Assembly: GCA_039915165.1 (NCBI GenBank)
Contig: JBDSNU010000018.1
Coordinates: forward strand, 2,064 to 66,063
Direction of reading: 5' to 3'
Length of the DNA stretch: 64,000 nt
Source: Minisyncoccota bacterium
GTDB taxonomy: Bacteria; Patescibacteriota; Minisyncoccia; Phycocordibacterales; UBA9973
Position numbers and translations under genes: made by a program. Below the pieces are notes generated by a model. That model saw only the letters and a list, made by a program, of their open reading frames with translations, did no database searches and was not told the origin of the DNA. Below, in pieces: positions 5,482 through 56,782 of this stretch. The first letter of the stretch is position 1; the number at the start of each line of letters is the position of its first letter.

Positions 5482-6681
5482 ATGAAAAGAATACTATTTC
5501 TGTGTATCATCACAGTGTGTGTATCATGCACACCAAAGCTCGTAGAACCAGCTTATACTCCCCCTCCAACTCATAAACCAACAGGCAAAGAACCTGTTAT
5601 GGTGATCGAGTCTCAGCTTATCCTTCATCCAGTCAAAGATATTGCCGCTGGTGATAATGGAAAGAATTACAATTTTTTCTATGATTACGGTAAGCGGTAT
5701 CTGCATATGACAGACGAGGACGAGACAGCAGCAGCTATTCGCAAATTTTTGCCTGAGTACATTACGGCTGATTCAATTGGTCGTGGCGTAAACCTGCAAT
5801 CGGCAGCGATATCCCCTTTTTCCAGTTTTACTGATCTAGTGAAAGACAAGATCACAAAAACAAAAGGCGTTGATTTCAGTACCATTAACATGTATCAATT
5901 TGCTAAATCCTTTAACGTTGATCTAGTAAGAAATAACCAGGGGGCAATGGAGGCGTTGTTAAAAATGCTTACTCCGAGTGAAACACGTGGATCATTTGTT
6001 AGTATCACTCCAGGCCGTACACCGATTTATGGGGTGCAAGGATTGTTGCTGAATCATCCGATCAAAAACATGATTAAAGGTGTTGATGGCAAGGAATGGT
6101 ATTTCTTTTTAGACAGAACTAGCCATTGTATTTTTATTACCGATGATGCAACATTGTATCAAAAAATTGTTGCCGTGCTTCCTATCGAAGCTGTGTACAA
6201 AAATGCTGTAGTTATGCAAGGGATTACTATTGAACCATTGGTGTTCTTCAGTGACTCTACACGTACAGCGATGGAAAAGGATCAAGGACTAGAATTAAAC
6301 GGTGGCGGTTCAAACACTGACAACAAAACAATAAATAATTATGACATCGCTGTTATAGAAAATTGTTCAATGGTTATTGATTATCCTGGAGTAATAACTA
6401 CTTTAAGAAAAAAATTGGGAGTAGCGTCACGCGTTACAAATACGACGGCTCCAACTTTTGGACAAAAAAGTTTTACAACTCCTGGATATGTACGGCCACC
6501 CAGTTCAAGTGCTATACCCCTCCCCCCGCCTCCGGCAAAGGTTGATCAGGATACACAGGAATATGAGACTCCTCCTCCAACCAACTCTAACCGGCGCTCT
6601 AAAGGAAATGTACCCGCTCCAAAAAAAACCGGGTATACCCCTCCTACTACTCCGCCGCCTTCATCGAGCGGTCGTCCTTAA
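5482..6681 (+). CDS. Lipoprotein (399 aa) with a Pro/Thr-rich C-terminus
   Basis: Lipobox-type signal MKRILFLCIITVCVSC. C-terminus PLPPPPAKV...TPPTTPPPSSSGRP. Confidence 0.55.
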   Translation: MKRILFLCIITVCVSCTPKLVEPAYTPPPTHKPTGKEPVMVIESQLILHPVKDIAAGDNGKNYNFFYDYGKRYLHMTDEDETAAAIRKFLPEYITADSIGRGVNLQSAAISPFSSFTDLVKDKITKTKGVDFSTINMYQFAKSFNVDLVRNNQGAMEALLKMLTPSETRGSFVSITPGRTPIYGVQGLLLNHPIKNMIKGVDGKEWYFFLDRTSHCIFITDDATLYQKIVAVLPIEAVYKNAVVMQGITIEPLVFFSDSTRTAMEKDQGLELNGGGSNTDNKTINNYDIAVIENCSMVIDYPGVITTLRKKLGVASRVTNTTAPTFGQKSFTTPGYVRPPSSSAIPLPPPPAKVDQDTQEYETPPPTNSNRRSKGNVPAPKKTGYTPPTTPPPSSSGRP

Positions 6682-6699
6682 GTACGCATTACTTAATTT

Positions 6700-6731
6700 A
6701 ACCCCCATATCCCAAAGATACGGGGGTTTTT
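6700..6731 (+). terminator. Rho-independent terminator (aaccccc...gggggttttt)
   Basis: GC stem followed by a T-run immediately after the lipoprotein stop. Confidence 0.6.
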
Positions 6732-6732
6732 C

Positions 6733-8451
6733 ATGTATACTATAGCCATGGTTCAGTTTGACGAAAGTGATCAACTCAAAAGAATAACAAATCTCCGTGA
6801 AGAAGAAGAGGAAGAAGTTGTAGCAATGCTCGCTCAACAACAGTATGGATTGCAATATACCAACCTCATCTCACAATCAATCGACAATGATGCAATTCGC
6901 CTGCTTACCGAAGAACAAGCACGAACATTTGACGTAGGTCCCTACAAATTGATCGACAAAAAACTTTTCTTAGCGGTACGTTCTCCAAATGCCGATGGCG
7001 CGATCAAAGCAAAAGAGTTGATCGAAGGAGAAGGGTATGAAGTACTATTTGTCATGACCAGCGAAAAAAGTATTGAAAAAGTATGGACTCACTACAAAGA
7101 CCTCTCATATGCTACTCGTTCACGCGCAGGGGGTCTCGATGTTTCTCCTGATGTATTACTCAACCTTAGTCAGACAGTGAAAACAATGGAAGACGCCATG
7201 AAAGTAATTACTGATGCGGTGAATGAAAGTAGTACTGTGCACCACCTGTCGCGTATTTTAGAAATTATCCTTGGGGCAGGGATTGGTATTGGCGCATCTG
7301 ATGTACACGTAGAACCAATGCAAGATGAAGTTGAAATCCGTTTTCGTTTAGATGGAGTACTTCATATCATCACAAAGGTAAATTTCGATACATATAAACA
7401 AATCAATACGCGTATTAAATTATTGTCTGGCTTGAAATTAACTATTAATTCAGTTCCCCAGGATGGACGTTTCAGTGCATTTCTTGGGACAGATGAAATT
7501 AGTTTTCGTACATCAATGATCCCAGGAGCATACGGTGAATCCATTGTGCTTCGTATCTTGAATCCAAAATCCATCCGAGTACAACTTGATGCGCTCGGTA
7601 TTTCTGCGCCACTGTTTGATATTTTTATGAAAGGTATTACCAAGCCAAACGGTATGGTACTACTGACTGGCCCGACAGGTTCCGGTAAAACAACAACACT
7701 GTACGCATTTTTGCAAAAAGTATTTAGTCCGGAATTAAAAATTATTACTATTGAAGATCCTATTGAATACCATCTTGCTGGTATCACACAAACACAAGTA
7801 GATCATAAAAAAGGATATACATTCTTGGAAGGCTTGCGTTCAGCGCTTCGTCAGGATCCGGACATTATCATGGTGGGAGAAATCCGTGATTCAGAAACAG
7901 CGAAGATTGCAGTTGAGTCTGCGTTGACGGGCCACATTGTGTTCTCAACACTTCACACCAATAATGCTTCCGGGGTGATTCCACGTTTGATCGACCTCGA
8001 TGTTAATCCAAAGATTTTAGTATCAGCGCTTTCTCTTTCAATTGCACAACGTTTGGTTCGTGTGCTTTGTAAAAACTGTAAGTATGAACGACCAATTACT
8101 CCAGAAGAAAAAGCGACTGTTGATATGGTCTGGAATGATGCCGTAGCGAATGGTAAAAACATGGACCAGTTCGGTGTACATCGAGACGTAACAACAGTGT
8201 GGGCAGCTCAAGGTTGTGAAGTTTGCGGCATGACAGGATATAAAGGACGACTGGGTGTTTTTGAAGTAGTAGAAATGGACGCCAATATCGAACACATTAT
8301 TCTTGCCAACCCTACTGAACGCGACATCAAAGCAATAGCCGACAAACAAGGCACCCTCGACATGCGCGAAGACGGTATCATCAAAATCTTACAAGGAATC
8401 ACCGACTTCGCGGAGCTGGCTTCTGTGGTGGACCTGAGCGAAAGAAAATAA
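6733..8451 (+). CDS. pilB: Type II/IV secretion system ATPase (GspE/PilB family), likely type IV pilus assembly ATPase
   Basis: GspE N-terminal domain. Walker A LLTGPTGSGKTTTL, Asp box, His box. C-terminal tetracysteine motif CKNCKY...CEVCGMTGYKGR. Confidence 0.85.
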   Translation: MYTIAMVQFDESDQLKRITNLREEEEEEVVAMLAQQQYGLQYTNLISQSIDNDAIRLLTEEQARTFDVGPYKLIDKKLFLAVRSPNADGAIKAKELIEGEGYEVLFVMTSEKSIEKVWTHYKDLSYATRSRAGGLDVSPDVLLNLSQTVKTMEDAMKVITDAVNESSTVHHLSRILEIILGAGIGIGASDVHVEPMQDEVEIRFRLDGVLHIITKVNFDTYKQINTRIKLLSGLKLTINSVPQDGRFSAFLGTDEISFRTSMIPGAYGESIVLRILNPKSIRVQLDALGISAPLFDIFMKGITKPNGMVLLTGPTGSGKTTTLYAFLQKVFSPELKIITIEDPIEYHLAGITQTQVDHKKGYTFLEGLRSALRQDPDIIMVGEIRDSETAKIAVESALTGHIVFSTLHTNNASGVIPRLIDLDVNPKILVSALSLSIAQRLVRVLCKNCKYERPITPEEKATVDMVWNDAVANGKNMDQFGVHRDVTTVWAAQGCEVCGMTGYKGRLGVFEVVEMDANIEHIILANPTERDIKAIADKQGTLDMREDGIIKILQGITDFAELASVVDLSERK

Positions 8452-14868: not shown

Positions 14869-17391
14869 ATGATTGATGGTATGAAAGAACATAAACAACA
14901 TAATGGATTTCCTTGGAAAAAGGTTCTATTTGCATTACTTGCACTTGGATTATTAGGGATCGGAGCAGTATTAATTTGGGCTAGTTTTATTAAACTCCCC
15001 GATATCTCCACTTTTGAGGCCAGACAGATTGCCAATTCATCAAAAATCACTGACCGAACTGGGCAAATAGTACTCTATGATGCTCATCAATCAGTAAAAA
15101 GAACGCAAATCCCATTGGCGAGTATGGGTGACCCTATTCAAAAAGCTGTGATCTCTATCGAAGATCAGGACTTCTATCACAATAGTGGTATTCGACCTAC
15201 ATCAATCTTGCGCGCAGTATTTGTAAACATTATCCATGTTGGATATGTACAAGGAGGTTCTACTATCACTCAACAGATTATTAAAAATACACTGCTCAAC
15301 GGTGATAAATCTGTTGCGCGTAAATTGAAAGAATGGGTATTGGCTGTTCGTCTCACTCGCCAATTTAGTAAAGACCAGATTTTGGAAATCTATCTTAATG
15401 ATGCCCCTCTTGGTGGAACAGTATATGGTGTTGAACAAGCATCACAATCATATTTTGGAATTCCTGCTGCTCAACTTGATTTGGCACAAGCTGCTTATAT
15501 TGCTGCTATGCTCCCTGCTCCAACATACTACTCCCCTTTTGGTTCACACAAAAAAGATCTTGATAGTCGAAAAAATCTTGTCCTTTCAAAAATGAAGCAA
15601 TATGGCTATATCACTAGTGATCAAATGGCTGCTGCAAAAACTGAAGTGGTTGCGTTCAACCAAGCAAGCAATACTGGTGTGAAAGCTCCTCACTTTGTTT
15701 TTTATATTCTTGATCAACTTGAACAAAAATATGGTAAAGACGTGTTGGATAATGATGGATATACAATTAAAACTACTCTTGATTATGATCTTCAACAAAA
15801 AGCTGAGCAGATCGTAGCGACTCAAGTAGCCGCAAATGAAAAACAATACAACGCTTCAAACTCTAGTTTAGTTGCTATTGATCCAACTACAGGACAAATC
15901 CTTACCATGGTTGGTTCTCGTAATTATTTCGACAAACAAATTGATGGTGCTTACAATACTGCTACTGCTCAACGTCAACCGGGTTCATCATTTAAACCAT
16001 TCGTCTATGCCACTGCTTTTGCAAAAGGATATACGCCCGAGACAGTAGTGTTTGATGTGCCTACAGAATTCTCTACAAATTGTACGCCTGACCAACAACC
16101 ACTTGCTGGTTTTACCTCGAAAGATTGTTATAACCCTGCTAACTTTGATAATAAATTCAAAGGCCCAATATCTCTTCGCAGTGCTATAGCTGAATCACGA
16201 AACGTGCCTTCAGTGAAACTTCTTTATTTAGTGGGTGTACAAAATGCTGTTGATTTTGCTCATGCATTAGGTATTACTACACTAACTAATCCTGCTGAAA
16301 TTGGTTTATCACTCGTGCTTGGTGGAGGCGAAGTAAAACTACTTGATATGACTAGTGCGTACGGTGTATTTGCAAATAGTGGTGTACGTAATCCAACAAC
16401 AGGTATTCTTGAAGTCGATGATAATAATGGGAATATTCTTGAACAATATCAACCCAATCCAACATCTGTCATGGATAAAAATGTAGCATTAACAATGAAT
16501 AATGTTCTATCTGATGCACAAGCTCGTATTCCTACATTCGGTACAACACTTATCACTATCCCAGGTGTTGCAGTAAAAACTGGTACAACAAACAGTGACC
16601 GTGATGCCTGGACTGTTGGATACACTCCTTCTATCTCAATTGGTGTATGGTCAGGTAACAATGATAATAAACCGATGAAAAGTGGTGGTTCTGCAATCTC
16701 TGGACCAACATGGAAAATGTTCATGCAATATACATTAACTAAATATCCAAATACTGCTTTTGAAGAACCCGTACCTGATCCAGATGCAAATACTTTGAAA
16801 CCGATCTTACGGGGTATCTGGATAGGTAACGAAACAGTTAAAGTTGATAAAGTAACAGGATTACGTGCTACAGATACAACACCTGCTGATGCAACAACTG
16901 AAAAAGTAATAACTGATGTACATGATATCCTTTATTGGGTAAATAAATCTGATCCTCATGGACCAATACCAACCAATCCAAGTAGCGATCCCCAGTTCCA
17001 TCTTTGGGAACCCTCTGTACAAACATGGTGGGCAAACAATGCTGGGAAATATAATAGTGTTAGTAGTGCTGATATTCCTGCATCATATGATACAGCGGGC
17101 ACTGCCGGTACCACCTCACCATTAAGCTTAAGTGGTATTTCAGATACTATGAATCTTAATGACAATGCCGAAATATCTGTAACAACATCTGCACAATACC
17201 CTCTTACTAGTGTTGATGTACTTATCGATAATAGTTACGTTGCTACACTCCCTGCACCATTTCATTTCGTATTTACACCAAGTGATTATAATTTAAAAAT
17301 TGGTCCACATACTATAACGTTCAACGCTACTAATAGTGTGTATGGTAAAAGTACTATCACAAAAAATATAACTTTTGTTCAAGGAACATAA
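14869..17391 (+). CDS. Class A penicillin-binding protein (transglycosylase + transpeptidase) with a ~200-aa C-terminal extension
   Basis: N-terminal TM; GT51 motifs EDQDFYHNSGI and RQFSKDQILEIYLN; transpeptidase SxxK (GSSFKP), SRN, KTGTT. Confidence 0.85.
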   Translation: MIDGMKEHKQHNGFPWKKVLFALLALGLLGIGAVLIWASFIKLPDISTFEARQIANSSKITDRTGQIVLYDAHQSVKRTQIPLASMGDPIQKAVISIEDQDFYHNSGIRPTSILRAVFVNIIHVGYVQGGSTITQQIIKNTLLNGDKSVARKLKEWVLAVRLTRQFSKDQILEIYLNDAPLGGTVYGVEQASQSYFGIPAAQLDLAQAAYIAAMLPAPTYYSPFGSHKKDLDSRKNLVLSKMKQYGYITSDQMAAAKTEVVAFNQASNTGVKAPHFVFYILDQLEQKYGKDVLDNDGYTIKTTLDYDLQQKAEQIVATQVAANEKQYNASNSSLVAIDPTTGQILTMVGSRNYFDKQIDGAYNTATAQRQPGSSFKPFVYATAFAKGYTPETVVFDVPTEFSTNCTPDQQPLAGFTSKDCYNPANFDNKFKGPISLRSAIAESRNVPSVKLLYLVGVQNAVDFAHALGITTLTNPAEIGLSLVLGGGEVKLLDMTSAYGVFANSGVRNPTTGILEVDDNNGNILEQYQPNPTSVMDKNVALTMNNVLSDAQARIPTFGTTLITIPGVAVKTGTTNSDRDAWTVGYTPSISIGVWSGNNDNKPMKSGGSAISGPTWKMFMQYTLTKYPNTAFEEPVPDPDANTLKPILRGIWIGNETVKVDKVTGLRATDTTPADATTEKVITDVHDILYWVNKSDPHGPIPTNPSSDPQFHLWEPSVQTWWANNAGKYNSVSSADIPASYDTAGTAGTTSPLSLSGISDTMNLNDNAEISVTTSAQYPLTSVDVLIDNSYVATLPAPFHFVFTPSDYNLKIGPHTITFNATNSVYGKSTITKNITFVQGT

Positions 17392-17400
17392 ATAAAGAAA

Positions 17401-17429
17401 AAATAAATGGGGTCTGACCCCATTTATTT
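17401..17429. repeat. REP-like palindromic element copy 3 (aaataaatggggtc-t-gaccccatttattt), also a convergent terminator
   Basis: Perfect 14-bp arms around the same core as copies 1 and 2, between the PBP stop (17391) and the convergent 83-aa gene end (17435). Confidence 0.6.
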
Positions 17430-17434
17430 TTTCT

Positions 17435-17686
17435 TTATTGCACTTGGTGGATTTTCACTCCTGAGTCTTGGAGAGCTTTCAGTATTTTTGCATTATTAAG
17501 CATTAGTACCATCTTTACTGTTGGAGAAGCTTTGATTCTTAATATTCCTTTTACAATAGTGACCTGGTCTGGTTGGATAGTTGTTTTCACAATATCACTA
17601 ATGATCTTGGCACTATCTTCAGTTACAGCACCATCTTTTGTAATCTTATCTTTTAATTGAGAGAGGATCGATTGAAAAAGATCCAT
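17435..17686 (-). CDS. Small protein (83 aa) immediately downstream of dnaN; possible DUF721/DciA-like helicase-loading factor
   Basis: Position directly after dnaA-dnaN. Weak DUF721-like C-terminus VKGILRIKASPTVKMVLMLN. Confidence 0.4.
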   Translation of the reverse strand: MDLFQSILSQLKDKITKDGAVTEDSAKIISDIVKTTIQPDQVTIVKGILRIKASPTVKMVLMLNNAKILKALQDSGVKIHQVQ

Positions 17687-17687
17687 A

Positions 17688-18785
17688 TTAACGGTTGGTC
17701 GGCATTAAGAGATAAAGGAATGAATTATCACTAACACTTCTTACAACAATAGGTTTATTTGGTTGAGTGAAGGAGATTGTTAAACTATCACCTGTAAGTG
17801 CCTGAAATACGTCTAGGAAGTACTTTAGATTGAAATCCACCTCGATAGGTTCACCTTCAATTGCAGCACTGACAGTGGACACTGAGGAACCTACATCACT
17901 ATTCTTTGAACTAAGTGTTATTACTTTTTTATCTTCTGGTATAGCAAATGATACTTGGAAAAATTTATCTGCAAAAATAGTAGAGAGACGAAGAGTATTA
18001 AGAAGTTCTTGTTTTAAAAGCACTACTTTTGTTACTGTTTCTTTGGGGATAATTAATTGATATGGTGGAAAACCGCCATCGATCAAACGTGAAGTTAAAT
18101 ATAGACCATTGGCAAAGAAAGCGATCTGATTACGAGTATACATAATACGGATTGTCTCTGGGGCAACATCAAGCACTCGCAGAATATCAGCAATGTTTTT
18201 AAAAGGGATCAAAATCTTGGCAATCTCAGGAATACCTTTTACAGTGATCTTTTTTTCAGCCAATCTAAATGAGTCAGTAGCAACGAAACAAAGTGTATTT
18301 TCTTCACTATAAATAAATATACTAGCGATTTCTGGTTTAATGTCTGTAATTGCTGCACAAAAGTACACAGAACGAATACCTTCTTGAAGTATCGCAGTCT
18401 TAATCTCAACTTGCTCCCCTTCTACAGCAGGAAGGGTAGGAAAATCATCTGCAGGTAATGACTTGATAACTGTAGTGTGTTGAGGTGTTGAAATAGTGAG
18501 ATTGTCATTATTAAGCGTTAAACGAACTTCACTTGCATCACTAAGGTGATTACAAACACTTGCCAGTACTTCCCCTTTGATGAGTACTGTTCCTTCTTGC
18601 TCTACATTAGCAGGGATTTCTATTTCAATACCTAGTGTGAGATTTGTTGATCGAACTTTTATACTCTTCCCTGAAGCAATTAAAAGAATTGCATGTAGTG
18701 TGGGTAATGTTAATGCTTTCCCTGTCATTCTCTCAGCGAGACTAACGGCGTTTTTCAACTTTTCTGTTGTACAAGTTATATTCAT
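17688..18785 (-). CDS. dnaN: DNA polymerase III subunit beta (sliding clamp)
   Basis: 365 aa, three-domain clamp pattern, directly downstream of dnaA. Confidence 0.9.
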   Translation of the reverse strand: MNITCTTEKLKNAVSLAERMTGKALTLPTLHAILLIASGKSIKVRSTNLTLGIEIEIPANVEQEGTVLIKGEVLASVCNHLSDASEVRLTLNNDNLTISTPQHTTVIKSLPADDFPTLPAVEGEQVEIKTAILQEGIRSVYFCAAITDIKPEIASIFIYSEENTLCFVATDSFRLAEKKITVKGIPEIAKILIPFKNIADILRVLDVAPETIRIMYTRNQIAFFANGLYLTSRLIDGGFPPYQLIIPKETVTKVVLLKQELLNTLRLSTIFADKFFQVSFAIPEDKKVITLSSKNSDVGSSVSTVSAAIEGEPIEVDFNLKYFLDVFQALTGDSLTISFTQPNKPIVVRSVSDNSFLYLLMPTNR

Positions 18786-42528: not shown

Positions 42529-42719
42529 GTAGTATGGCTTTTCTTACAAATAATTTCAAGCAGCCCTTTTTCGGTACGGTAGTTGATGGTGGTAATTTCT
42601 TCATTGTCAGTAAACTGTATAGTAGGATTTTTAATACCGAGTTGGATTTCATATGCTAAAATATTTCTTTGATTCATTCGGACTAATGCATGTTCCGTAT
42701 AAATGATACGCATACTCAA
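42498..42719 (-). CDS. DUF4258-family small protein (putative toxin partner)
   Basis: IIYTEHALVRMNQRNI signature; overlaps the DUF2283 gene. Confidence 0.45.
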   Translation of the reverse strand: MSMRIIYTEHALVRMNQRNILAYEIQLGIKNPTIQFTDNEEITTINYRTEKGLLEIICKKSHTTCIVITCYYL

Positions 42720-44221
42720 TCTAGTTTCGGGCGATATTGAAGTGCCTCTAAAACATGGCGCTCTTCTATAGTGTCGGAGTTGTCTAGGTCTGCGATAGTG
42801 CGCGAAACTTTTATCGTCCGTAAATATGATCGTGGTGATAGTTTTAGCTTCTCCGCGAATTGTTGTAGTTGCTTCTTTGCCTGCTCATTTAATTTACTTT
42901 TGAGATGAACATCTTGTGAGGACATGTCACTATTTAATGTGCCGGACCGAGCATATTGAATGGTGCGCAGTACCCCTACTCTTTTTTGTATTGAAGCACT
43001 TTCTTTATTGTTCCCTATTTCATGTAATGATTCGTAATCGATATGTTGTACGGGTACCCATAGATCAATGCGATCCATGATCGGCCCCGAAAGTTTTTTA
43101 TTGTATCGTGCCAGTTCTCCACCGAGACAACTACATGCTTTGATCGAGCTTCCTCTATATCCGCAGGGACATGGATTCATTGCTGCTAGTAAAATAAACT
43201 CTGCAGGGAAATGCACACTACCCTTAGCTCTGGCGACAGTAATGCTTCCGTCTTCCATTGGCTCTCTCAATGCCTCGATAACCCTTCTATCGAATTCCGG
43301 AAATTCATCAAGATACAAGACTCCTCTGTGTGAAAGTGTAATATCTCCTGGGCGAATATTAGAACCACCACCAATGATTGCAACATGAGAAGCACTATGG
43401 TGTGGACTGCGAAGCGGTGGATTGCCATCGAGAATACTATCTATCAAGCCTATGCTGGAATAAATTGTTGCTACTTCTAGGAAGTGCTCATTAGATAGTG
43501 ACGGTAGTATTCCATGAAAGGCTTTTGCTAACATGGTCTTGCCTGTGCCTGGTGGTCCATACAATACAATGTTGTGACCACCACTTGCCGCGATAGTCAG
43601 CGCCCGCTTTGCTATTGTTTGCCCTTTCACATCGCCAAAATCAATACCAATATGTTCATGGGTAGCAATACGTATCGAAGGTGAAACTGTTTCTAGACGA
43701 TGTACTCCTAACAAGTGATCAACAAGTGCAGATAATGTTGGTACTAGAAAAAATACTACTCCTTCTACCAGTTGTGCTTCCCGCTTATTACCAATAGGTA
43801 TATAGACTTCGGCAATGCCTTTTTTCTTTGCCCATAGTGCAATAGATAATAATCCTCGTATTGGTCTAACGTCTCCGTTTAGACCTAGTTCACCCACAAA
43901 GATTTTATTAGCACTATCGAAATGCAGTGTTTCACTAGCAGTAAGATATCCTAATGCAATTGCTATATCAAAATACGAACCCTCTTTTTTAATTTCTGCA
44001 GGAGAAAGGCTAACGATAACTTTATTGTTTTCAGATTTCGGATTTTTATGTAAACTATTTCGTAATGCGCTGATCACTCGCTCTCGAGATTCTTCAACAG
44101 CTTTGTCGGGCAGTCCAACTATTTGAAATAAATATAATCCTTTACTGATATCTGTTTCAACGGCAACTCCTGATGCGCCAAGTCCTGTAAGTTGCGCGCT
44201 GTGAATAATAGAAAATGCCAT
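42716..44221 (-). CDS. comM: YifB/ComM-family Mg-chelatase-like AAA+ ATPase
   Basis: Lon-like N-domain, AAA+ Walker A GPPGTGKTMLA, ChlI-type C-terminal domain. Confidence 0.85.
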   Translation of the reverse strand: MAFSIIHSAQLTGLGASGVAVETDISKGLYLFQIVGLPDKAVEESRERVISALRNSLHKNPKSENNKVIVSLSPAEIKKEGSYFDIAIALGYLTASETLHFDSANKIFVGELGLNGDVRPIRGLLSIALWAKKKGIAEVYIPIGNKREAQLVEGVVFFLVPTLSALVDHLLGVHRLETVSPSIRIATHEHIGIDFGDVKGQTIAKRALTIAASGGHNIVLYGPPGTGKTMLAKAFHGILPSLSNEHFLEVATIYSSIGLIDSILDGNPPLRSPHHSASHVAIIGGGSNIRPGDITLSHRGVLYLDEFPEFDRRVIEALREPMEDGSITVARAKGSVHFPAEFILLAAMNPCPCGYRGSSIKACSCLGGELARYNKKLSGPIMDRIDLWVPVQHIDYESLHEIGNNKESASIQKRVGVLRTIQYARSGTLNSDMSSQDVHLKSKLNEQAKKQLQQFAEKLKLSPRSYLRTIKVSRTIADLDNSDTIEERHVLEALQYRPKLD

Positions 44222-46499: not shown

Positions 46500-47405
46500 A
46501 TGACAATCTCAGAGGCAAAAACACAGTTTCTTGAATATATTGAAATCGAAAAAGGTCGCAGCCCTTTGACCAGTCGCAATTACGACCATTATCTCAATAA
46601 ATTCTTTAGTGAAATGAAGATCAATACACCTTCTGACATCACAGAATCAGCTATTCGGCAGTTTCGCGTACAGTTAAATCGTGCCCCAGGTGTGAAAACT
46701 AAGGGCCAGGGTGGTAACACCATGAAGAAAACTACACAAAACTATCACATGATAGCGTTACGTTCTTTTTTGAAATACCTCAAAAAGATCAATATCACCT
46801 CTGTTAGTCCTGATGTGATCGAGCTAGCAAAGGTTGGAGCGCGCGATCTCGACCTTATATCCACAGATGAACTCATTCGTCTACTTAAAGCCCCCGACAC
46901 AAAAGAACTCAAGGGTATGCGCGATAAAGCATTGTTAGAATTATTTTTCTCAACCGGGTTGCGTTTGGCAGAACTATGTTCTCTCAATAGAGACCTCGAC
47001 CTTTCGCGTGATGAGTTTTCTATTCGCGGTAAGGGTGAAAAAGTGCGCGTAGTGTTTTTGTCAGACGAAGCGAAGGATGCAATCAAAGTGTATTTAAAAG
47101 AACGAAAAGATATGGAAGAAGCCATGTTTGTTAATAATTCACGTAATAGTATTGCAGGGAGGCTCACTCCCCGCTCTATCGAACGCATCGTCCGCGAATA
47201 TGCTACCAAGGCCGGCATATCAAAAAAGGTTACACCTCACGTACTACGCCACTCATTTGCAACTGATTTGCTTTCTAATGGTGCTGATATCCGCAGTGTA
47301 CAAATGATGTTAGGTCATGCAAACATTGCTACTACACAGATCTATACGCACATCACTGACAAACAATTGCGCGATGTACACAAGAAGTTTCATAGCAAAA
47401 GATAG
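46500..47405 (+). CDS. Tyrosine site-specific recombinase, XerC/XerD family
   Basis: Catalytic R..H..R..Y region [38 protein letters not shown]. Confidence 0.85.
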
Positions 47406-51021: not shown

Positions 51022-51051
51022 GTACTAATAACAGTTAAACTATAGCATTTG

Positions 51052-51108
51052 CCGCACAAATAGCAAAAACCCTCAGATGTAATCTGAGGGTTTTTGCTAT
51101 TTGTGCGG
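51052..51108. repeat. 57-nt perfect palindrome (26-bp arms, 5-nt loop) between tRNA-Arg and tRNA-Gly; contains a canonical terminator core
   Basis: ccgcacaaatagcaaaaaccctcaga-tgtaa-tctgagggtttttgctatttgtgcgg. The right arm overlaps the last 5 nt of tRNA-Gly(GCC). Confidence 0.75.
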
Positions 51109-51174
51109 CTACAGAGAATCGAACTCTGGTCTCGTCCTTGGCAAGGACGCATTCTACCACTAAACCATAACCGC
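51104..51174 (-). tRNA. tRNA-Gly (anticodon GCC)
   Basis: Cloverleaf: acceptor GCGGTTA/TAGCCGC, anticodon stem CGTCC/GGACG with loop TTGCCAA, T arm CAGAG-TTCGATT-CTCTG. Confidence 0.8.
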
Positions 51175-51897: not shown

Positions 51898-51970
51898 CGG
51901 GATGTGGTGTAACGGCTAACATGCCTCTTTTGGGAAGAGGTGACTCAGGGTTCGAATCCCTGCATCCCGA
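51898..51970 (+). tRNA. tRNA-Pro (anticodon TGG)
   Basis: C1:G72 acceptor CGGGATG/CATCCCG, anticodon stem CCTCT/AGAGG with loop TTTGGGA, T arm CAGGG-TTCGAAT-CCCTG. Confidence 0.85.
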
Positions 51971-52006
51971 CACTGAGGGAACTACAAAAAAATCAAAAAA
52001 ACCCAT

Positions 52007-52037
52007 ACAAAATAAGGTCTATACGACCTTATTTTGT
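52007..52037 (+). terminator. Hairpin terminator after tRNA-Pro (acaaaataaggtc-tatac-gaccttattttgt)
   Basis: Perfect 13-bp inverted repeat. Confidence 0.55.
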
Positions 52038-52054
52038 ATTCCGCGTCAAAGGGG

Positions 52055-52078
52055 AGATAGGGATTAGAACTGTGTATG
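52055..52078. repeat. Inverted, degenerate copy of the tRNA-Pro 3' end (ggggagatagggattagaactgtg)
   Basis: Reverse complement cacagttctaatccctatctcccc against tRNA-Pro 3' agggttcgaatccctgcatccc. Confidence 0.4.
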
Positions 52079-52124
52079 CACTATAAAAAAAGCGGCCAAT
52101 ATATTGGCCGCTACCTAGTTTTCG

Positions 52125-52532
52125 TTAAACGATTGAATTTATCGCATTTTCATATTCTTGGATCTCTTTATCTACTTCCGTCAAAACACTTTCCTGTACT
52201 TTTTGAAACCTTTTGGTTTTAATTGATCGGAGATCTTTTTTGAGCAGCTTTCGAGCGATTTTCTTCTTCTTCGCAACAGTGCTAAAGATCTTTCCAACGT
52301 TGTACATTACAATCAAGGAATAAATTATTCCCATTGTGTAAAAATAGAGTCCAAAATCTAATCGGCCTATAAATTTATTGAACAGGCACTCTACTAGTAG
52401 GGTGCCAATGGTTCCACCTATGGCCACTGAAATTATTAACTTTATTATTTTTTCAACTTTACTATTTACTTTGATAGAAGCTTTTTTGATTGCGCTATCA
52501 ATTAAGTACTGTGATTCAGGTGTATTTTTCAT
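52125..52532 (-). CDS. Small membrane protein (135 aa), unknown; followed by palindrome agcggccaatatattggccgct
   Basis: Two predicted TM helices and a Lys-rich C-terminus; terminator-like perfect palindrome at 52091-52112. Confidence 0.4.
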   Translation of the reverse strand: MKNTPESQYLIDSAIKKASIKVNSKVEKIIKLIISVAIGGTIGTLLVECLFNKFIGRLDFGLYFYTMGIIYSLIVMYNVGKIFSTVAKKKKIARKLLKKDLRSIKTKRFQKVQESVLTEVDKEIQEYENAINSIV

Positions 52533-52705
52533 ATTGTTATGTTTTAAGGGTTATCTAAAAACCCCTTCATTAGATTCTTAGAAAGCCCTTAAAACAATTT
52601 AAAAGAACATTTAAATAGTATCACGATTTTAGTAAAATGTCAATATCTCATGATACATTACAATATCAAAAAAAGCCCTAAAATGAGCTTGTTGTATAAC
52701 GTTGG

Positions 52706-52880
52706 ACTACATGTCTAAATCTTGGAACGAGTCTGTACTCTCAGGATGTTTGGTGCACAGCCTAACATAGCCCAGCAACAGACTAGCTTTCTCGTATGTT
52801 TCACGATCAGAGAGTTCAATGCCGTAAAGTTTCTTGCATAACTCTTTAAATGTTTGCAGTCGATGAGGTTTGATTTCCAT
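52706..52880 (-). CDS. Mini-gene (57 aa), paralogue of 53761..53958; unknown function
   Basis: Frame chosen by paralogy: MEIKPHRLQTFKELCKKLYGIELSDRETYEKASLLLGYVRLCTK against MQIKPERLKIFKELYKEMHGVELTDAEAYKSASALLGFVSLCIK. The ORF-track frame at 52715-52936 is a different, unsupported frame. Confidence 0.4.
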
Positions 52881-53009
52881 AAGGCATAGATTACAGTTAT
52901 TTGGACTTTTTGCAATGTCACGTCTGTGTTTTTCATTTTGACAACGGACAGCTAAAACTCTCCTGCTAAAAAAGCACCCGGTATTAAGGGGTGCTTTGGG
53001 GTGCGAATC

Positions 53010-53216
53010 TTAGCATTCTCGTAAACCAGTTCTGAAATGTTTGAACACAAGAACTGTTGCCGCAATGAAGGAAATACAACCGAGCGGAATTCCTAATGGG
53101 ATTTCTTTATACGTGCTGTAAACAATAGTGCCGAGTATTCCACCAAGAACTGTACTTGCTGTGCCCATCAATATCATAAGTATTACTGACTGCACATTTG
53201 GAGATAGATATTTCAT
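53010..53216 (-). CDS. Small hydrophobic protein (68 aa, two TM)
   Basis: ORF with hairpin terminator aagcaccc..gggtgctt downstream. Confidence 0.35.
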   Translation of the reverse strand: MKYLSPNVQSVILMILMGTASTVLGGILGTIVYSTYKEIPLGIPLGCISFIAATVLVFKHFRTGLREC

Positions 53217-53525
53217 AGTCGCGGGATTTTATTTATTGCATTGTGCAATATTTTTTTATATAAGTCAATAAATATGCTGCCTCCCGGAGTTGCCTTTCAA
53301 ACCTGCATTGTATATAGTATTCACAGTCAAAAAGAGTGTACTTTAAACTATTCCTTTTTGGGTAAATGTTCGGTAAAAGTTCTAATGTGATCCCTAAGGG
53401 ACGACACTGATCGATTGCGATCATGGTAAAATAAAATAGTAATGTTACGCAGATAAAAGCGGGCATTGTCGCGCCGAAGTTGAAACGAAGTTCGCCTCCG
53501 TTCTCCGAACTTCGGCCCAACGAAG

Positions 53526-53596
53526 GCGGGTATAGTTTAGTGGTAGAATGACACACTTCCAATGTGTAGACCAGGGTTCGATTCCCTGTACCCGCA
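53526..53596 (+). tRNA. tRNA-Gly (anticodon TCC)
   Basis: Acceptor GCGGGTA/TACCCGC, anticodon stem ACACA/TGTGT with loop CTTCCAA, T arm CAGGG-TTCGATT-CCCTG. Confidence 0.85.
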
Positions 53597-53686
53597 CAAT
53601 ATCGAACCGTCTTTTCGGTTCACCGCTTCTTGTAAAATAAAGCCCGTTCGACAATACTCTCATTTTTTCGTCAATGAAAATGACAA

Positions 53687-53706
53687 ACGGGTATAGGGAA
53701 TCGAAC
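53687..53706. repeat. Inverted degenerate copy of the tRNA-Gly(TCC) 3' end (cgggtatagggaatcgaact), ~95 bp after the tRNA
   Basis: Reverse complement agttcgattccctatacccg matches tRNA 3' ggttcgattccctgtacccg at 18 of 20 positions. Confidence 0.5.
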
Positions 53707-53723
53707 TGTATATTCCTTATAAA

Positions 53724-53751
53724 CAAAGCCCTCTCAAACATGAGAGGGCTT
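53724..53751 (-). terminator. Hairpin terminator (aaagccctctca-aaca-tgagagggcttt) for the minus-strand mini-gene
   Basis: Perfect 11-bp stem with flanking A/T. Confidence 0.55.
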
Positions 53752-53760
53752 TGTTGCGAA

Positions 53761-53958
53761 TCACTTTCGTTCGACGACCTGTTTAGTATAGTAAAACTCT
53801 TCTGGCGTTTCCACTGGCTCAAGTGGTTTGATACATAGTGAAACAAATCCTAATAGGGCACTGGCACTTTTATATGCCTCAGCGTCCGTCAGTTCAACGC
53901 CGTGCATCTCTTTGTATAGTTCCTTAAATATCTTAAGGCGCTCGGGCTTGATTTGCAT
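53761..53958 (-). CDS. Mini-gene (65 aa), paralogue of 52706..52880
   Basis: Start at the internal MQIKPERLK, supported by alignment to the paralogue. Confidence 0.4.
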   Translation of the reverse strand: MQIKPERLKIFKELYKEMHGVELTDAEAYKSASALLGFVSLCIKPLEPVETPEEFYYTKQVVERK

Positions 53959-54008
53959 ATCATCGCAGAGTACAGGGTTTTCGGGGTTTTGCAAAGCGCC
54001 GCATTGCC

Positions 54009-54389
54009 TTGGCGGTGTCCGGTTCGGATTCGCCTATTAAGTTAAATATGGATCTGATACTATGTAGGAACTACGGCATGCTTTCAGAAGACCGAACATT
54101 TCAATACAGGGGAGTGCTAACCCTAAGGAAGAGCCGCGTTATCAACGCTCCCGACCGACCAGTGGACGACGTGGTCAACTGGCTCTTTCTTAGGGCGGGC
54201 GACGTGCAGTTCAGCTTCGTGTACAAGATCGAGCGTCCCGACGGTGCAGAATACGGAATTCCCTTTTCTGCGCATGTAGCATTCACGGCAACAGAGCATG
54301 TGCAGGAAATTCTTTTGCTGGACAAGGTGTACGAGGTCTTGAGAGGAGAAGAGCTCATCGGAAAGATTGTACTGGCTGAAAAACTGTAG
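54009..54389 (+). CDS. Hypothetical protein (126 aa) encoded in a GC-enriched (~50% GC) segment
   Basis: Clean ORF. Composition (cgaccgaccagtggacgacgtggtcaactgg...) clearly deviates from the AT-rich surroundings. Confidence 0.45.
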   Translation: MAVSGSDSPIKLNMDLILCRNYGMLSEDRTFQYRGVLTLRKSRVINAPDRPVDDVVNWLFLRAGDVQFSFVYKIERPDGAEYGIPFSAHVAFTATEHVQEILLLDKVYEVLRGEELIGKIVLAEKL

Positions 54390-54403
54390 CGCATGGCGGG
54401 TTC

Positions 54404-54438
54404 AAAAGTTCGCAACGTTATCCCTAAGTCCGCACCAA
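54404..54438 (+). repeat. Direct repeat A1 (aaaagttcgcaacgttatccctaagtccgcaccaa), resembles tRNA-Gly 3' end; second copy at 56711..56745
   Basis: 33 of 35 identical to the copy at 56711. The tail tccctaagtccgcaccaa resembles tRNA-Gly 3' tccctgtacccgcacaa. Confidence 0.55.
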
Positions 54439-54491
54439 CTCGTGCGCTCACGAGAAGCTTAGAAAAGCTCATTTTCTGATATAATTACAAT

Positions 54492-55274
54492 ATGGAAAAA
54501 CCACCCGGACCGATTGAAAACCCTGATCATGCATGGGAAGTGGCGCATGCTGAAAAGCCTCTTCGAGACATTGCTCGGGAAGAATGGGTGAGTGAAGATC
54601 AAAAGGAAGCTCTGGACGCACTTGCTGAGCAACGTGGCGAAGAGACGCTAAGTCAGCTTCTTTCGCAAGAAGTTCCACAAACCGATGCAAAATCAGAAAA
54701 TAACATCGAGTCTCACGAAGCCGTTGAAAAAATGATGGAGTTGGTAAAAAACAATCCGAACATCAATCTTATTATTGACGGTAACGGAAATGTTCTAGCT
54801 GAAGCAGGAGATAGAGATCGAAACGGTCAATCATCTTTTTATTTTGATACAAATAAGCAGCAGATGGTTCCTTCTCCAATAACTCTTGATTATGATATGC
54901 AAAGTTTTTCTAATAGAGATGAAAATTTTATCCCCTACAAGACTTATTGGAAGTTCACTACGCTTAACAAAAGCAGTAACAATCTTATTGTTGCCTGTCT
55001 CCCATTTAACCCTACTGTAAATAATCCCTATACCAAGGAGCATCGTCCTGGAACACACTTATCGTTTGGTTTAGCTTATAAAAACAACATACCTGGCTTT
55101 CTGGATTCACTTGGAAACGAGACATTGAAAGGATACTTACAAAACCCCGATACCGAAGAGTCTAAAAACTTCTTCACGAAAGTCTTTACTGAAGGCGCTA
55201 AAGAATTCACCCCAAAGTATTGGGAAGCTTTTGTTAACGATTACAATAGTTATAAGAATCATACTAGAAAGTAA
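54492..55274 (+). CDS. Hypothetical protein (260 aa)
   Basis: Clean ORF with no recognisable motif. Confidence 0.45.
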   Translation: MEKPPGPIENPDHAWEVAHAEKPLRDIAREEWVSEDQKEALDALAEQRGEETLSQLLSQEVPQTDAKSENNIESHEAVEKMMELVKNNPNINLIIDGNGNVLAEAGDRDRNGQSSFYFDTNKQQMVPSPITLDYDMQSFSNRDENFIPYKTYWKFTTLNKSSNNLIVACLPFNPTVNNPYTKEHRPGTHLSFGLAYKNNIPGFLDSLGNETLKGYLQNPDTEESKNFFTKVFTEGAKEFTPKYWEAFVNDYNSYKNHTRK

Positions 55275-55365
55275 AATTCACTAGCGCACGAGAAGAGTCA
55301 ATCTGATATACTTAAAACATTAAAAATAACCTTGCAGGGCAAGGAACTGTTCGGTTTTATCACGA

Positions 55366-55377
55366 GTACCCGCACAA
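55366..55377 (+). repeat. Exact 12-nt direct repeat of the tRNA-Gly(TCC) 3' end (gtacccgcacaa); attR-like core
   Basis: Identical to 53585-53596. Confidence 0.4.
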
Positions 55378-55463
55378 AATAAAAATGACATCGTCATTTT
55401 TCACTCATGCGAGACAATGCTTCGTTTTCAATACTTTTTCATTCTTGTCAAAAAATAGGCGAA

Positions 55464-55483
55464 CAGGTATAGGGAATCGAACC
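55464..55483. repeat. Inverted tRNA T-arm-like fragment (caggtatagggaatcgaacc) followed by an imperfect hairpin
   Basis: Same motif gtatagggaatcgaac as at 53690. Confidence 0.45.
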
Positions 55484-55526
55484 AAATAAATAAGCCTCTC
55501 ATATATTATGAAAGGCTTATTGGAAT

Positions 55527-55853
55527 TTACGCATATTGTCTAAAAAAAGAATGTTCTGACCTCCAGATCATATTTTTCAATTTCTGGTTTTTTGCGCACG
55601 CAAGTTTTACACTCACTGCTCCAAGCGGTGTAGTTATCACAGATAAAAGCATAAAGCATATCCACGGTAACCAATTCATCTTTCTTGAGTAACTATCCCA
55701 AGCTGTACAGCCCCTGCCTTCTTTATTGAACCCAGGGTAAACGCTCAGGTCATTTTCTATAGTAAGGAACCCGAAGAAAAGAGAAGCAAAAAATGTTATT
55801 GCGATAGAAATCGAAATAATTAAGGAAAGATTGTCTAAAATTAGATTTTTCAT
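55527..55853 (-). CDS. Small membrane protein (108 aa)
   Basis: Two hydrophobic helices. Confidence 0.4.
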   Translation of the reverse strand: MKNLILDNLSLIISISIAITFFASLFFGFLTIENDLSVYPGFNKEGRGCTAWDSYSRKMNWLPWICFMLLSVITTPLGAVSVKLACAKNQKLKNMIWRSEHSFFRQYA

Positions 55854-55972
55854 GATTAAATTTTTAATGTTTTGATTTATAAATATGATAGCATATTATA
55901 TTTATTTTGTCAACATAAACATGATGACAAAATAAAACACGTCAAATCACCTATGTTTGCTATACTTTAATC

Positions 55973-56698
55973 ATGAAATCTACCCTTAAGGATCTTGGGC
56001 TTACGTCGAATGAAATTACTGTCTACGAGGCCTTGGTAAAGTTAAAAGGGTCATCTTCTGCGGGAGACATAATCAAGTTTTCAAACCTTCATCGAAACAT
56101 CGTCTACGATTGCTTGTCTCATTTAGAGAATAAGGGGTTGGTTCAGGAAGTAGAAAAGAACAAGAAGAAATTCTTCAACTTAAAAAGCCCCGATTCATTA
56201 ATTACAGGTTTTGAAAAACAGATAAAAAGCGTTGGCGAACTGTCAAAAATTATCCAAGCGCTCCCATTTGCCAGTGGACACGAAGTTTCTATCTATGAGG
56301 GAAGTATTGCTTGGCAGGAAGCATGGAGTAATGTCATGCAAAATCTCAAACCTAAAAGTACTTTCTATACTATTGGTATGGCGGGAGATCCTTGGGTCAA
56401 ACTAATGGGTGAGACATTCGTTGAGTATGAGCAATGGGCATTGAAAAATAAAGTCACAGACAAGATTATTTCCCAGAAACATCTTCAGAAGGAAATCGAA
56501 GCACACCAAAACAAGCAGTTCTGTGATATCAGGTATATCGATATTGATTTGTCTGCTCACACCAGCATTGAAATTTTTGAAGATAGAGTATTCTTCGAGA
56601 TATATGACAACCCCCAGACTTTGATTGAAATTAGAAGCATGGCCTTAGTCATAACCTTCAAGGCGTATTTTGAACTACTGTGGAAGACCGGCAAGTAA
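55973..56698 (+). CDS. TrmB-like winged-HTH transcriptional regulator (241 aa)
   Basis: N-terminus LGLTSNEITVYEALVKLKGSSSAGDIIKFSNLHRNIVYDCLSHLENKGLV typical of TrmB-family wHTH. Confidence 0.5.
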   Translation: MKSTLKDLGLTSNEITVYEALVKLKGSSSAGDIIKFSNLHRNIVYDCLSHLENKGLVQEVEKNKKKFFNLKSPDSLITGFEKQIKSVGELSKIIQALPFASGHEVSIYEGSIAWQEAWSNVMQNLKPKSTFYTIGMAGDPWVKLMGETFVEYEQWALKNKVTDKIISQKHLQKEIEAHQNKQFCDIRYIDIDLSAHTSIEIFEDRVFFEIYDNPQTLIEIRSMALVITFKAYFELLWKTGK

Positions 56699-56710
56699 TG
56701 ATTGGTGTGT

Positions 56711-56745
56711 AAAAGTTCGCAACGTTGTCCCTAAGCCCGCACCAA
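56711..56745 (+). repeat. Direct repeat A2 (aaaagttcgcaacgttgtccctaagcccgcaccaa)
   Basis: Second copy of repeat A, immediately after the TrmB-like stop. Confidence 0.55.
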
Positions 56746-56782
56746 ATAAAAACACTCATATTTATATGAGTGTTTTTATTTC

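Follow-up and report, generated by a model that had tools for sequence, protein, structure and literature searches.

Cis-mobilizable elements (CIMEs), known from Streptococcus thermophilus, are remnants of integrative and conjugative elements that are still flanked by attachment (att) sites and lack recombination genes. At tRNA genes, the integrative elements surveyed by Mageeney et al. (2020, PMC7192596) divide unevenly by enzyme: tRNA use was found for 4.9% of serine-integrase elements, a use described there as previously unreported, versus 44.5% of tyrosine integrases. Here we analyze a 64,000-nucleotide (nt) stretch (the window) of contig JBDSNU010000018.1 from a Paceibacterota genome of the candidate phyla radiation (CPR), in which an islet without an integrase gene lies behind an intact tRNA-Gly(TCC) gene. 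We conclude, with a probability of about 0.72, that the segments 53598-56745 and 51972-53407 are an array of decayed integrative elements that used large serine recombinases (LSRs) and inserted at the extreme 3' ends of tRNA genes.

The islet resembles Islander/TIGER-type tRNA islands and tandem arrays (PMC7192596) in its insertion at the 3' end of a tRNA that stays intact, in the tRNA-end copies that act as its bounds, in its tandem units, and in a variable cargo that is absent from relatives and includes one gene of foreign composition. It departs from them in having no integrase gene, in fossils that point to an LSR, and in units of 0.8-1.4 kb. Elements of the phiC31, Bxb1, A118 and TnpX/Ccr type offer a second comparison: the LSRs linked to our fossils likewise have Resolvase, Recombinase and Zn-ribbon domains, a gene at the element edge by the att site, and a short core. 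Unlike those elements, however, they target a tRNA 3' end, they have a reading frame that runs across att so that the C terminus changes on integration, they are preceded by a conserved gene of 60-70 amino acids (aa), and the enzyme itself is gone from the window. As in CIMEs, the units of the islet have att-like bounds, lack an integrase and stand in tandem at a conserved site; here, by contrast, the relics would derive from serine-integrase elements, and mobilization in trans is a proposal only. Short units of one or two genes, split at a single locus by a repeated sequence that looks like a recombination site, also recall integron cassette arrays. The islet nevertheless has no IntI, attI or attC-type imperfect palindromes; its repeats are unlike attC palindromes and match the tail of a recombinase gene, and its anchor is a tRNA. 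Because the window's sole tyrosine recombinase is a syntenic Xer gene, the islet does not qualify as an integron. A decayed tandem array is thus a well-known kind of locus, and the uncommon part is an LSR whose reading frame crosses its att site. We found no description of tRNA-targeting large serine integrases in the literature on CPR bacteria.

Results

The 35-nt repeats match the end of a serine recombinase gene

For comparison we used 80 syntenic loci from Nomurabacteria/Paceibacterota genomes, retrieved with the CCA-adding enzyme as anchor, which have in common the gene order CCA enzyme, tRNA-Arg, tRNA-Gly(GCC), YraN, tRNA-Pro and tRNA-Gly(TCC). In the window, the islet is bounded on one side by tRNA-Gly(TCC), with the insert starting directly after its ..CCGCAC end, and on the other by the ancestral terminator of that tRNA. 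A preliminary description of this DNA had singled out the intact tRNA and two 35-nt direct repeats as landmarks, and both hold up: two programs agree on the tRNA, and the repeats are 94% identical, a pair never produced by shuffling.

53526..53597, plus strand: intact tRNA-Gly(TCC), the anchor (ARAGORN; Rfam, 75 bits)
54404..54438, plus strand: R1, 35-nt repeat and putative LSR tail fossil; minus strand reads ..WCGLRDNVANF*, the last 11 codons; ends in the core CCGCAC
56711..56745, plus strand: R2, second copy of the putative LSR tail fossil; minus strand reads ..WCGLRDNVANF.., the last 11 codons; ends in CCGCAC
56744..56781, plus strand: ancestral tRNA-Gly(TCC) terminator, a perfect 18-bp hairpin, now 3.15 kb from the tRNA

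When public metagenomes were scanned with the core of the repeat (R), one match was meaningful, GGTTCGCAACGTTATCCCTAAGCCCGCAC, which lies at the very 3' terminus of an opposite-strand gene. That gene encodes P0005, a 545-aa LSR with Resolvase, Recombinase and Zn_ribbon_recom domains, whose C terminus reads ..CGLRDNVANRHRV (at greater length, ..KRILCGLRDNVANRHRV). R shares 27 of 29 nt with the tail of the P0005 gene, and R1 and R2 in reverse complement both give ..WCGLRDNVANF in the frame of that tail. The identity between R1 and R2 stops, on one side, where the LSR has its stop codon and, on the other, at the CCGCAC core. By this homology, what the 35-nt repeats preserve is the final 11 codons of an LSR gene. 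We infer that R is an attP arm, with the crossover at or next to CCGCAC. The tails of the repeats had been noted to resemble the tRNA 3' end; they do, because the LSR tail, or attP arm, mimics the tRNA end, but they would be LSR tails and not displaced ends of the tRNA.

The sequence past R2 is 82% identical over 56 nt to the tRNA-Gly(TCC) 3' end and terminator of L034 (blastn), homology that shows the native terminator of tRNA-Gly(TCC) to have been displaced by the insert. Candidate junctions read R-CCGCAC/AATATC in L086, and tRNA-CCGCAC/AATATC and R-CCGCAC/native flank in the window, the shared stretch being 6 nt only. The flank after R1 (CAACTCGTGCGC..ACGAGAAGCTTAGAAA) is 84% identical over 57 nt to L009 2361-2415 (blastn), which likewise comes after an LSR-tail-like fossil, CGYEESNRPHHP*. 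Scans of viral contigs with R and with the R1 flank gave no matches, and the presumed att cores, inspected for quasi-palindromic symmetry in their surroundings, gave nothing informative.

A small gene ties the islet to the recombinase module

Two short minus-strand genes provide a second line of evidence.

53761..53994, minus strand: s77, putative accessory gene of LSR elements, probably in its 65-aa form, 53761-53958 (65-aa form in NCBI)
52707..52880, minus strand: s57, s77 paralogue upstream of tRNA-Gly and homologue of the small gene found before LSRs

The link between s77 and LSRs surfaced in tblastn with the LSR set, which caught s77 because one member, P0016, carries an s57-like peptide fused ahead of the LSR; s57 is 50% identical to the P0016 N terminus. 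Two further relatives of the small gene stand directly upstream of intact LSRs, p62 (62 aa) in L087 and p69 (69 aa) at the same position in L092, so that this arrangement is seen in three genomes if the fusion in P0016 is included. Identity to p62 is 56% for s77 (E 1e-18) and 59% for s57 (E 5e-15); identity to p69 is 51% for both (E 9e-17 and 2e-16, respectively). A search for homologues of s77 returned only s77 itself.

Given that R and s77 match adjacent parts of one LSR module, the islet appears to hold fossils of the recombinase module itself. The LSR gene is absent from the 64-kb window (tblastn, hidden Markov model [HMM]), where its last 11 codons alone survive in three copies, R1, R2 and R0, the last of these behind tRNA-Pro. 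By these comparisons, the lost recombinase was probably a serine integrase and not one of the tyrosine type, which is the usual assumption for tRNA genes. A tail kept as attR arm, together with a linked small gene, can thus name a lost recombinase, which helps annotate many orphan islets in CPR genomes.

The L087 and L092 modules have named relatives in Sphingobacteriaceae (Mucilaginibacter, Pedobacter), and L092 has a SusC-like receptor gene; by these sequence affinities, the element family may cross the boundary between CPR and Bacteroidota. L087 contains a second serine recombinase gene (16031-18548, 496 aa) that adjoins a shortened ComM/Mg-chelatase-like gene, of 351 aa versus 501 aa in the window (42716-44221), an arrangement resembling insertion into comM.

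A probable sister relic lies at tRNA-Pro

The affected region is larger than the islet first reported, because a sister relic, E0, sits at the neighboring tRNA-Pro.

51898..51971, plus strand: tRNA-Pro(TGG), anchor of E0 (ARAGORN)
51972-53407: E0 relic islet, with h135 (minus), s57 (minus), m68 (minus) and then R0
52125..52532, minus strand: h135, membrane protein, E0 cargo (open reading frame [ORF] call)
53376..53407, plus strand: R0, putative LSR-tail fossil and right-hand scar of E0; minus strand reads ..SSLRDHIRTF..

The distance from tRNA-Pro to tRNA-Gly(TCC) is 1554 nt here versus ~40-180 nt in most relatives. R0 is 56% identical over 18 aa to the tail of P0080 (tblastn), the motif GTGATCCCTAAG is found as well, and R0 ends in CGACAC/TGA, as does the tRNA-Pro 3' end. 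The same order is therefore met twice, as tRNA-Pro, s57 (minus), R0 and as tRNA-Gly, s77 (minus), g103, R1. A tRNA on the plus strand, an s77-like gene on the minus strand and R on the plus strand, in two relics, is the order expected after integration.

Intact serine recombinases end in tRNA genes of relatives

Relatives contain LSR genes in the position that the fossils imply. In L018, an intact 540-aa LSR gene (6459-8081) lies against tRNA-Gly(TCC), with its last 13 nt overlapping the tRNA 3' end on the opposite strand, and the former trailer of the tRNA has moved to the far end of the insert. In L088 (8001-9656) and L090 (8001-9641), intact homologues of P0005 end 57 nt inside tRNA-His(GTG), also on the opposite strand; no distal att site of these tRNA-His elements was found within 8 kb. 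Many members of the LSR family end in ..W..R[DE]SNP.. (..RDSNPR..), which is what CCA, acceptor and T-loop give when translated antisense, and the remaining members end in ..LR[DE]HIRT.., a degenerate form of the same kind of sequence. R (LRDNVAN) and R0 fall in the latter class. L018 at tRNA-Gly and L088/L090 at tRNA-His are thus concrete cases of an LSR at a tRNA 3' end with a frame across att, a pairing of LSR and tRNA that was rare and unproven in the survey by Mageeney et al. (PMC7192596).

Proposed history of the array

These observations suggest the following course of events. In an intact element, the LSR gene and the small gene related to s77 would both be oriented with transcription heading for the attachment site. 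The final LSR codons would form the element-side arm that mimics the T-arm and acceptor of the tRNA, placed left of the crossover in the circular form. Integration next to ..CCGCAC would join the LSR body to the tRNA, and the LSR tail would from then on be read antisense through the tRNA. The old tail would stay behind at the distal end, before the native trailer of the tRNA, as an attR scar; R1 would be the attR-type scar of a relic E1, and R2 that of a relic E2. Later deletion of the LSR genes would have left the tRNA junctions, s77 and s57, the cargo (g103, m108, the TrmB-like gene, h135 and m68), and R0, R1 and R2. We infer that an LSR gene once stood between the tRNA and s77. Only with help in trans from a related LSR would the elements now be mobile.

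This course agrees at its core with the earlier proposal that elements integrated one after another at a tRNA att site and later lost their recombinase, a core supported by the R tails, by s77 and s57, and by the absence of the cargo and the repeats from syntenic relatives. Sequential integration is plausible, with a tentative order and number of events.

The cargo is absent from syntenic relatives

The cargo of the islet is missing from all 80 syntenic relatives, and neither s77-like genes nor the R motif were found in them. An arrangement conserved with its repeats across relatives would have spoken for ancestry; with cargo and repeats present in 0 of 80 loci, sequence comparison supports acquisition of the islet instead. 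Comparison with empty sites, proposed in the preliminary description, could be made in part: besides the missing cargo in 80 of 80 loci, the h293 homologue of L024 lies 32 nt past the tRNA, while the closest relative in the set is 83% identical, and this in the CCA enzyme only.

DNA past tRNA-Gly(TCC) was different in every relative examined. L005 has a two-component system and glycosyltransferases there, and L009 has GNATs, Fic and APH. Two relatives have islets without an integrase at this same tRNA: in L009 (6262-7451), two GNAT genes lie between near-perfect 70-nt direct repeats that reach 50 nt beyond the tRNA, and in L043 (4123-7139), the genes encode an OLD-family nuclease (AAA_15 and TOPRIM) and a helix-turn-helix protein. 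Extra copies of the tRNA-Gly(TCC) 3' end occur downstream in 13 of 52 relatives.

Homologous trailer modules and competing explanations

The exact 12-nt repeat of the tRNA 3' end given in the preliminary description, GTACCCGCACAA, is indeed present at 53588-53599 and 55366-55377. Allowing at most one mismatch, GTACCCGCACAA has four matches in the window, two of them inexact, versus 0.2 expected. This short repeat is really part of a ~170-nt module that had been missed, with copies A (53575-53760) and B (55353-55525) that align over ~170 nt at a spacing of 1776-1778 nt and with ~65% identity.

53598..53760, plus strand: module A trailer, with hairpin 53604-53621, inverted T-arm/acceptor 53688-53706 and bidirectional terminator 53722-53755
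55353..55377, plus strand: degenerate tRNA-Gly 3' end, GGTTTTATCACGAGTACCCGCACAA, which holds the exact 12-mer
55378..55525, plus strand: module B trailer, homologous to module A, with hairpin 55381-55401, inverted fragment 55464-55483 and terminator 55489-55521

Behind both tRNA-3'-end copies comes a small hairpin, next, ~90 nt past the copy, the tRNA T-arm/acceptor in inverted orientation (GGTATAGGGAATCGAAC, at 53690-53706 and 55466-55482), and finally the terminator of a minus-strand gene. At the 53597 and 55378 junctions, the minus strand retains I-L-C-G, a motif that the LSR family has just before its tail, which is short evidence. At gathering score, Rfam matched neither the repeats nor the modules, the four tRNAs being its sole matches in the window. 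An inverted T-arm/acceptor of the upstream tRNA, ~80-120 nt past the tRNA end, is also seen in L009 (~7353-7370, tRNA-Gly) and in L003 (368-392, tRNA-Ser). We considered the inverted repeat that flanks the LSR of L087 as a source of the inverted fragments and rejected it, as it matches at 10 of 11 nt only and was not called in the repeat search.

Several observations weigh against an array of decayed LSR elements. Since a crossover by an LSR leaves the tRNA end in a single copy and in its original orientation, another cause is needed for the inverted fragments and for the second tRNA 3' end, the degenerate one at 55353-55377. Homology between A and B over ~170 nt is, moreover, unlikely after two independent LSR deletions. 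This homology could mean that E1 and E2 come from a family of cassettes that had common ends and were without a recombinase beforehand, or that the unit of tRNA end and trailer was duplicated by a single homologous crossover of the Campbell type. A remnant of the LSR body is undetectable in the window with the family HMM run on six-frame translations, and tblastn finds tails only. The AATATC common to junctions after the core is just six A/T-rich bases. The closest intact modules of s77-like gene and LSR, in L087 and L092, do not adjoin a tRNA, and the reading of R as attP arm draws on analogy with more distant LSRs. Lastly, the two assemblies with the locus are identical and offer no strain-level empty site.

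The first of the two explanations just named holds that E1 (module A to R1) and E2 (module B to R2) never had a recombinase and were non-autonomous cassettes, comparable to CIMEs or to miniature inverted-repeat transposable elements, which an LSR encoded elsewhere moved in trans and which stacked at tRNA genes. Such a cassette would end on the left in the trailer module with its inverted tRNA fragment and on the right in the R arm. E1 and E2 are indeed alike at both ends and different in cargo, with a shared 170-nt module that two independent deletions would hardly leave; relatives have, behind several of their tRNAs, elements of 115-140 nt whose ends are of these kinds, and the integrase-less islets of L009 and L043 stand at the same tRNA. 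Yet s77 is a relic of an LSR operon, so that E1 at least would descend from an autonomous element, and tblastn across the 64-kb window found no LSR gene. Moreover, an attL or attR junction is not a normal LSR substrate, which makes stacking hard to explain, and mobility of the cassettes is a proposal only. We regard this origin of E1 and E2 as unlikely.

Homologous insertion of the Campbell type, or duplication in situ of the tRNA 3' end with its trailer, would make the LSR pieces passengers. The ~170 nt of diverged homology fit this account, as does the 70-nt repeat of L009, which extends 50 nt past the tRNA and is typical of a single homologous crossover, not of an LSR. It leaves unexplained, however, why R stands exactly at CCGCAC and is then followed by native trailers, and why tRNA, s77-like gene and R keep a consistent order in two relics; ~65% identity between A and B is also too low for recent homologous recombination. 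These points render such an origin quite improbable, and the decay of LSR elements remains our preferred account of the array.

Cargo genes and composition

The preliminary description listed four hypothetical proteins and a TrmB-like regulator as cargo, and the ORFs s77, g103, c260 and m108 together with a Pfam TrmB match bear this out. It also reported no integrase, and none is present among the ORFs of 51.9-57.3 kb. The Xer gene at 46500-47405 was considered as integrase of the island and rejected: it has 55-88% identity (best tblastn segment) and is syntenic in nearly all 80 relatives, which marks it as a housekeeping gene, and it lies ~6 kb away.

54078..54389, plus strand: g103, 103 aa, GC-rich cargo gene, with 51 homologues aligning from M24
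54439..54491, plus strand: hairpin CTCGTG-CGCT-CACGAG and promoter-like region of c260
54492..55274, plus strand: c260, 260-aa hypothetical protein, with two homologues only
55527..55853, minus strand: m108, 108-aa small membrane protein, E2 cargo (ORF call; no family matches)
55973..56698, plus strand: TrmB-like winged-helix regulator, E2 cargo (Pfam TrmB, E 1e-14; NCBIfam far below cutoff)

A segment of about 50% GC at 54000-54700 in a genome of ~38% GC had been reported. The segment is at 49.2% and is one of two regions above 50% GC in 400-nt windows, and the mean of the window is 39.7%, not ~38%. Analysis of codon usage traces this real GC bump mainly to g103, whose GC content at third codon positions is 0.60 versus 0.31 +/- 0.045 in 39 long ORFs, ~6 standard deviations above; the composition of g103 is foreign. 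Its structure model is a small beta-barrel (AlphaFold predicted local distance difference test [pLDDT] 92) with a weak resemblance to EF-Tu domains 2/3 (E ~3e-3). Public gene calls place a 123-aa ORF on the minus strand here (54101-54472), which we reject given the 51 homologues and the confident model of the plus-strand protein; the public annotation is probably on the wrong strand at g103.

The c260 protein is identical to one from a Candidatus Paceibacterota metagenome-assembled genome. In the alignment of c260, an N-terminal region of ~55 aa is GC-rich and conserved and the C terminus is variable; the structure model of c260 (pLDDT 59) is too poor for a fold search. Its first ~50 codons and the preceding 15 nt (54477-54632) have 72-79% DNA identity to L003 457-613 and L004 615-783, the homologues there being otherwise diverged (38% and 57% protein identity, BLAST). 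All three genes have a GC-rich hairpin and a TGATATAAT-like promoter upstream. From these alignments, the c260 family appears to join a conserved N-terminal module to variable C termini.

The search of the cargo against phage, plasmid and defence collections that had been suggested gave no cargo match in them (PHROGs, PADLOC), and the islet had no plasmid match in blastn. Across all cargo ORFs, Pfam, PHROGs, PADLOC and NCBIfam returned TrmB, MGMT and a weak LeoBC match of h135 only. The last comes from PADLOC and covers the C-terminal part (E 3e-7; profile positions 443-554 of 601), possibly reflecting nothing other than a common membrane segment.

Structured elements behind tRNAs in relatives

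In relatives, a structured element of 115-140 nt lies ~30-40 nt past tRNA-Gly(TCC), tRNA-Gly(GCC), tRNA-Pro and tRNA-Arg; examples are L051 1077-1202 (minus strand), L063 8550-8683 (minus), L048 8262-8378 (plus) and L067, with four copies. Its 5' end repeats the 5' acceptor strand of the neighboring tRNA, its 3' end copies 12-20 nt of the T-loop/acceptor 3' end of that tRNA, and its conserved interior has a 9-bp hairpin with a CUGC loop plus CGUAAGG. Compensatory changes occur in 13 of 32 pairs. With a covariance model, the 80 loci yield ~36 copies at E < 1e-3, and the window yields no match at E <= 1. Rfam, run on seven relatives with the element, returned tRNAs only and no such family. We rejected a tRNA pseudogene or intron-containing tRNA, because the element is without D, anticodon and T arms and is too short for a group I intron. 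This widespread, unannotated and structured sequence behind tRNAs may be a minimal form of tRNA-anchored elements or a tRNA-mimic RNA.

The element bears on a further account of the repeats in the window, by which they would be parts of functional tRNA-mimic RNAs and not scars, with the inverted fragment as 5' strand and the tRNA-end copy as 3' strand. A covarying structure with such ends exists in relatives, as the 13 of 32 compensatory pairs and the ~36 matches attest, and the window keeps the order of tRNA end, inverted copy and, farther on, tRNA-end copy. Set against this, the covariance model has no match in the window, the presumptive RNA strands would be separated by 1.2-1.7 kb of DNA that has genes in both orientations, and R is already explained by LSR coding sequence. 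We consider functional RNAs a very improbable source of the repeats.

A broader and tentative proposal, which we think rather doubtful, is that of a cassette system in Paceibacteria: units that have conserved ends (on the left a trailer with inverted tRNA end, on the right a tRNA-mimicking arm from the LSR tail) but no recombinase would be moved in trans by tRNA-targeting LSRs and would stack behind tRNA genes. The ~120-nt elements would then be minimal cassettes or a new class of tRNA-mimic RNA, and the family would perhaps be shared with Sphingobacteriaceae-like genomes. Such sharing, if true, would be a hint of exchange that links a CPR episymbiont with a lineage of possible hosts.

The order and orientation of tRNA-Gly(TCC), tRNA-Pro, tRNA-Gly(GCC) and tRNA-Arg are repeatedly flipped among loci L005-L084, and the tRNA cluster near the CCA enzyme in Nomurabacteria/Paceibacteria is a hot spot of insertion and inversion. 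In the window, a perfect 28-nt inverted repeat at 51051-51109 forms the terminator between tRNA-Arg and tRNA-Gly(GCC) and reaches into the acceptor 3' strand of the latter. This design, of tRNA end, hairpin and inverted tRNA end, is also found behind tRNA-Gly(TCC) in L051, L063, L048 and L049.

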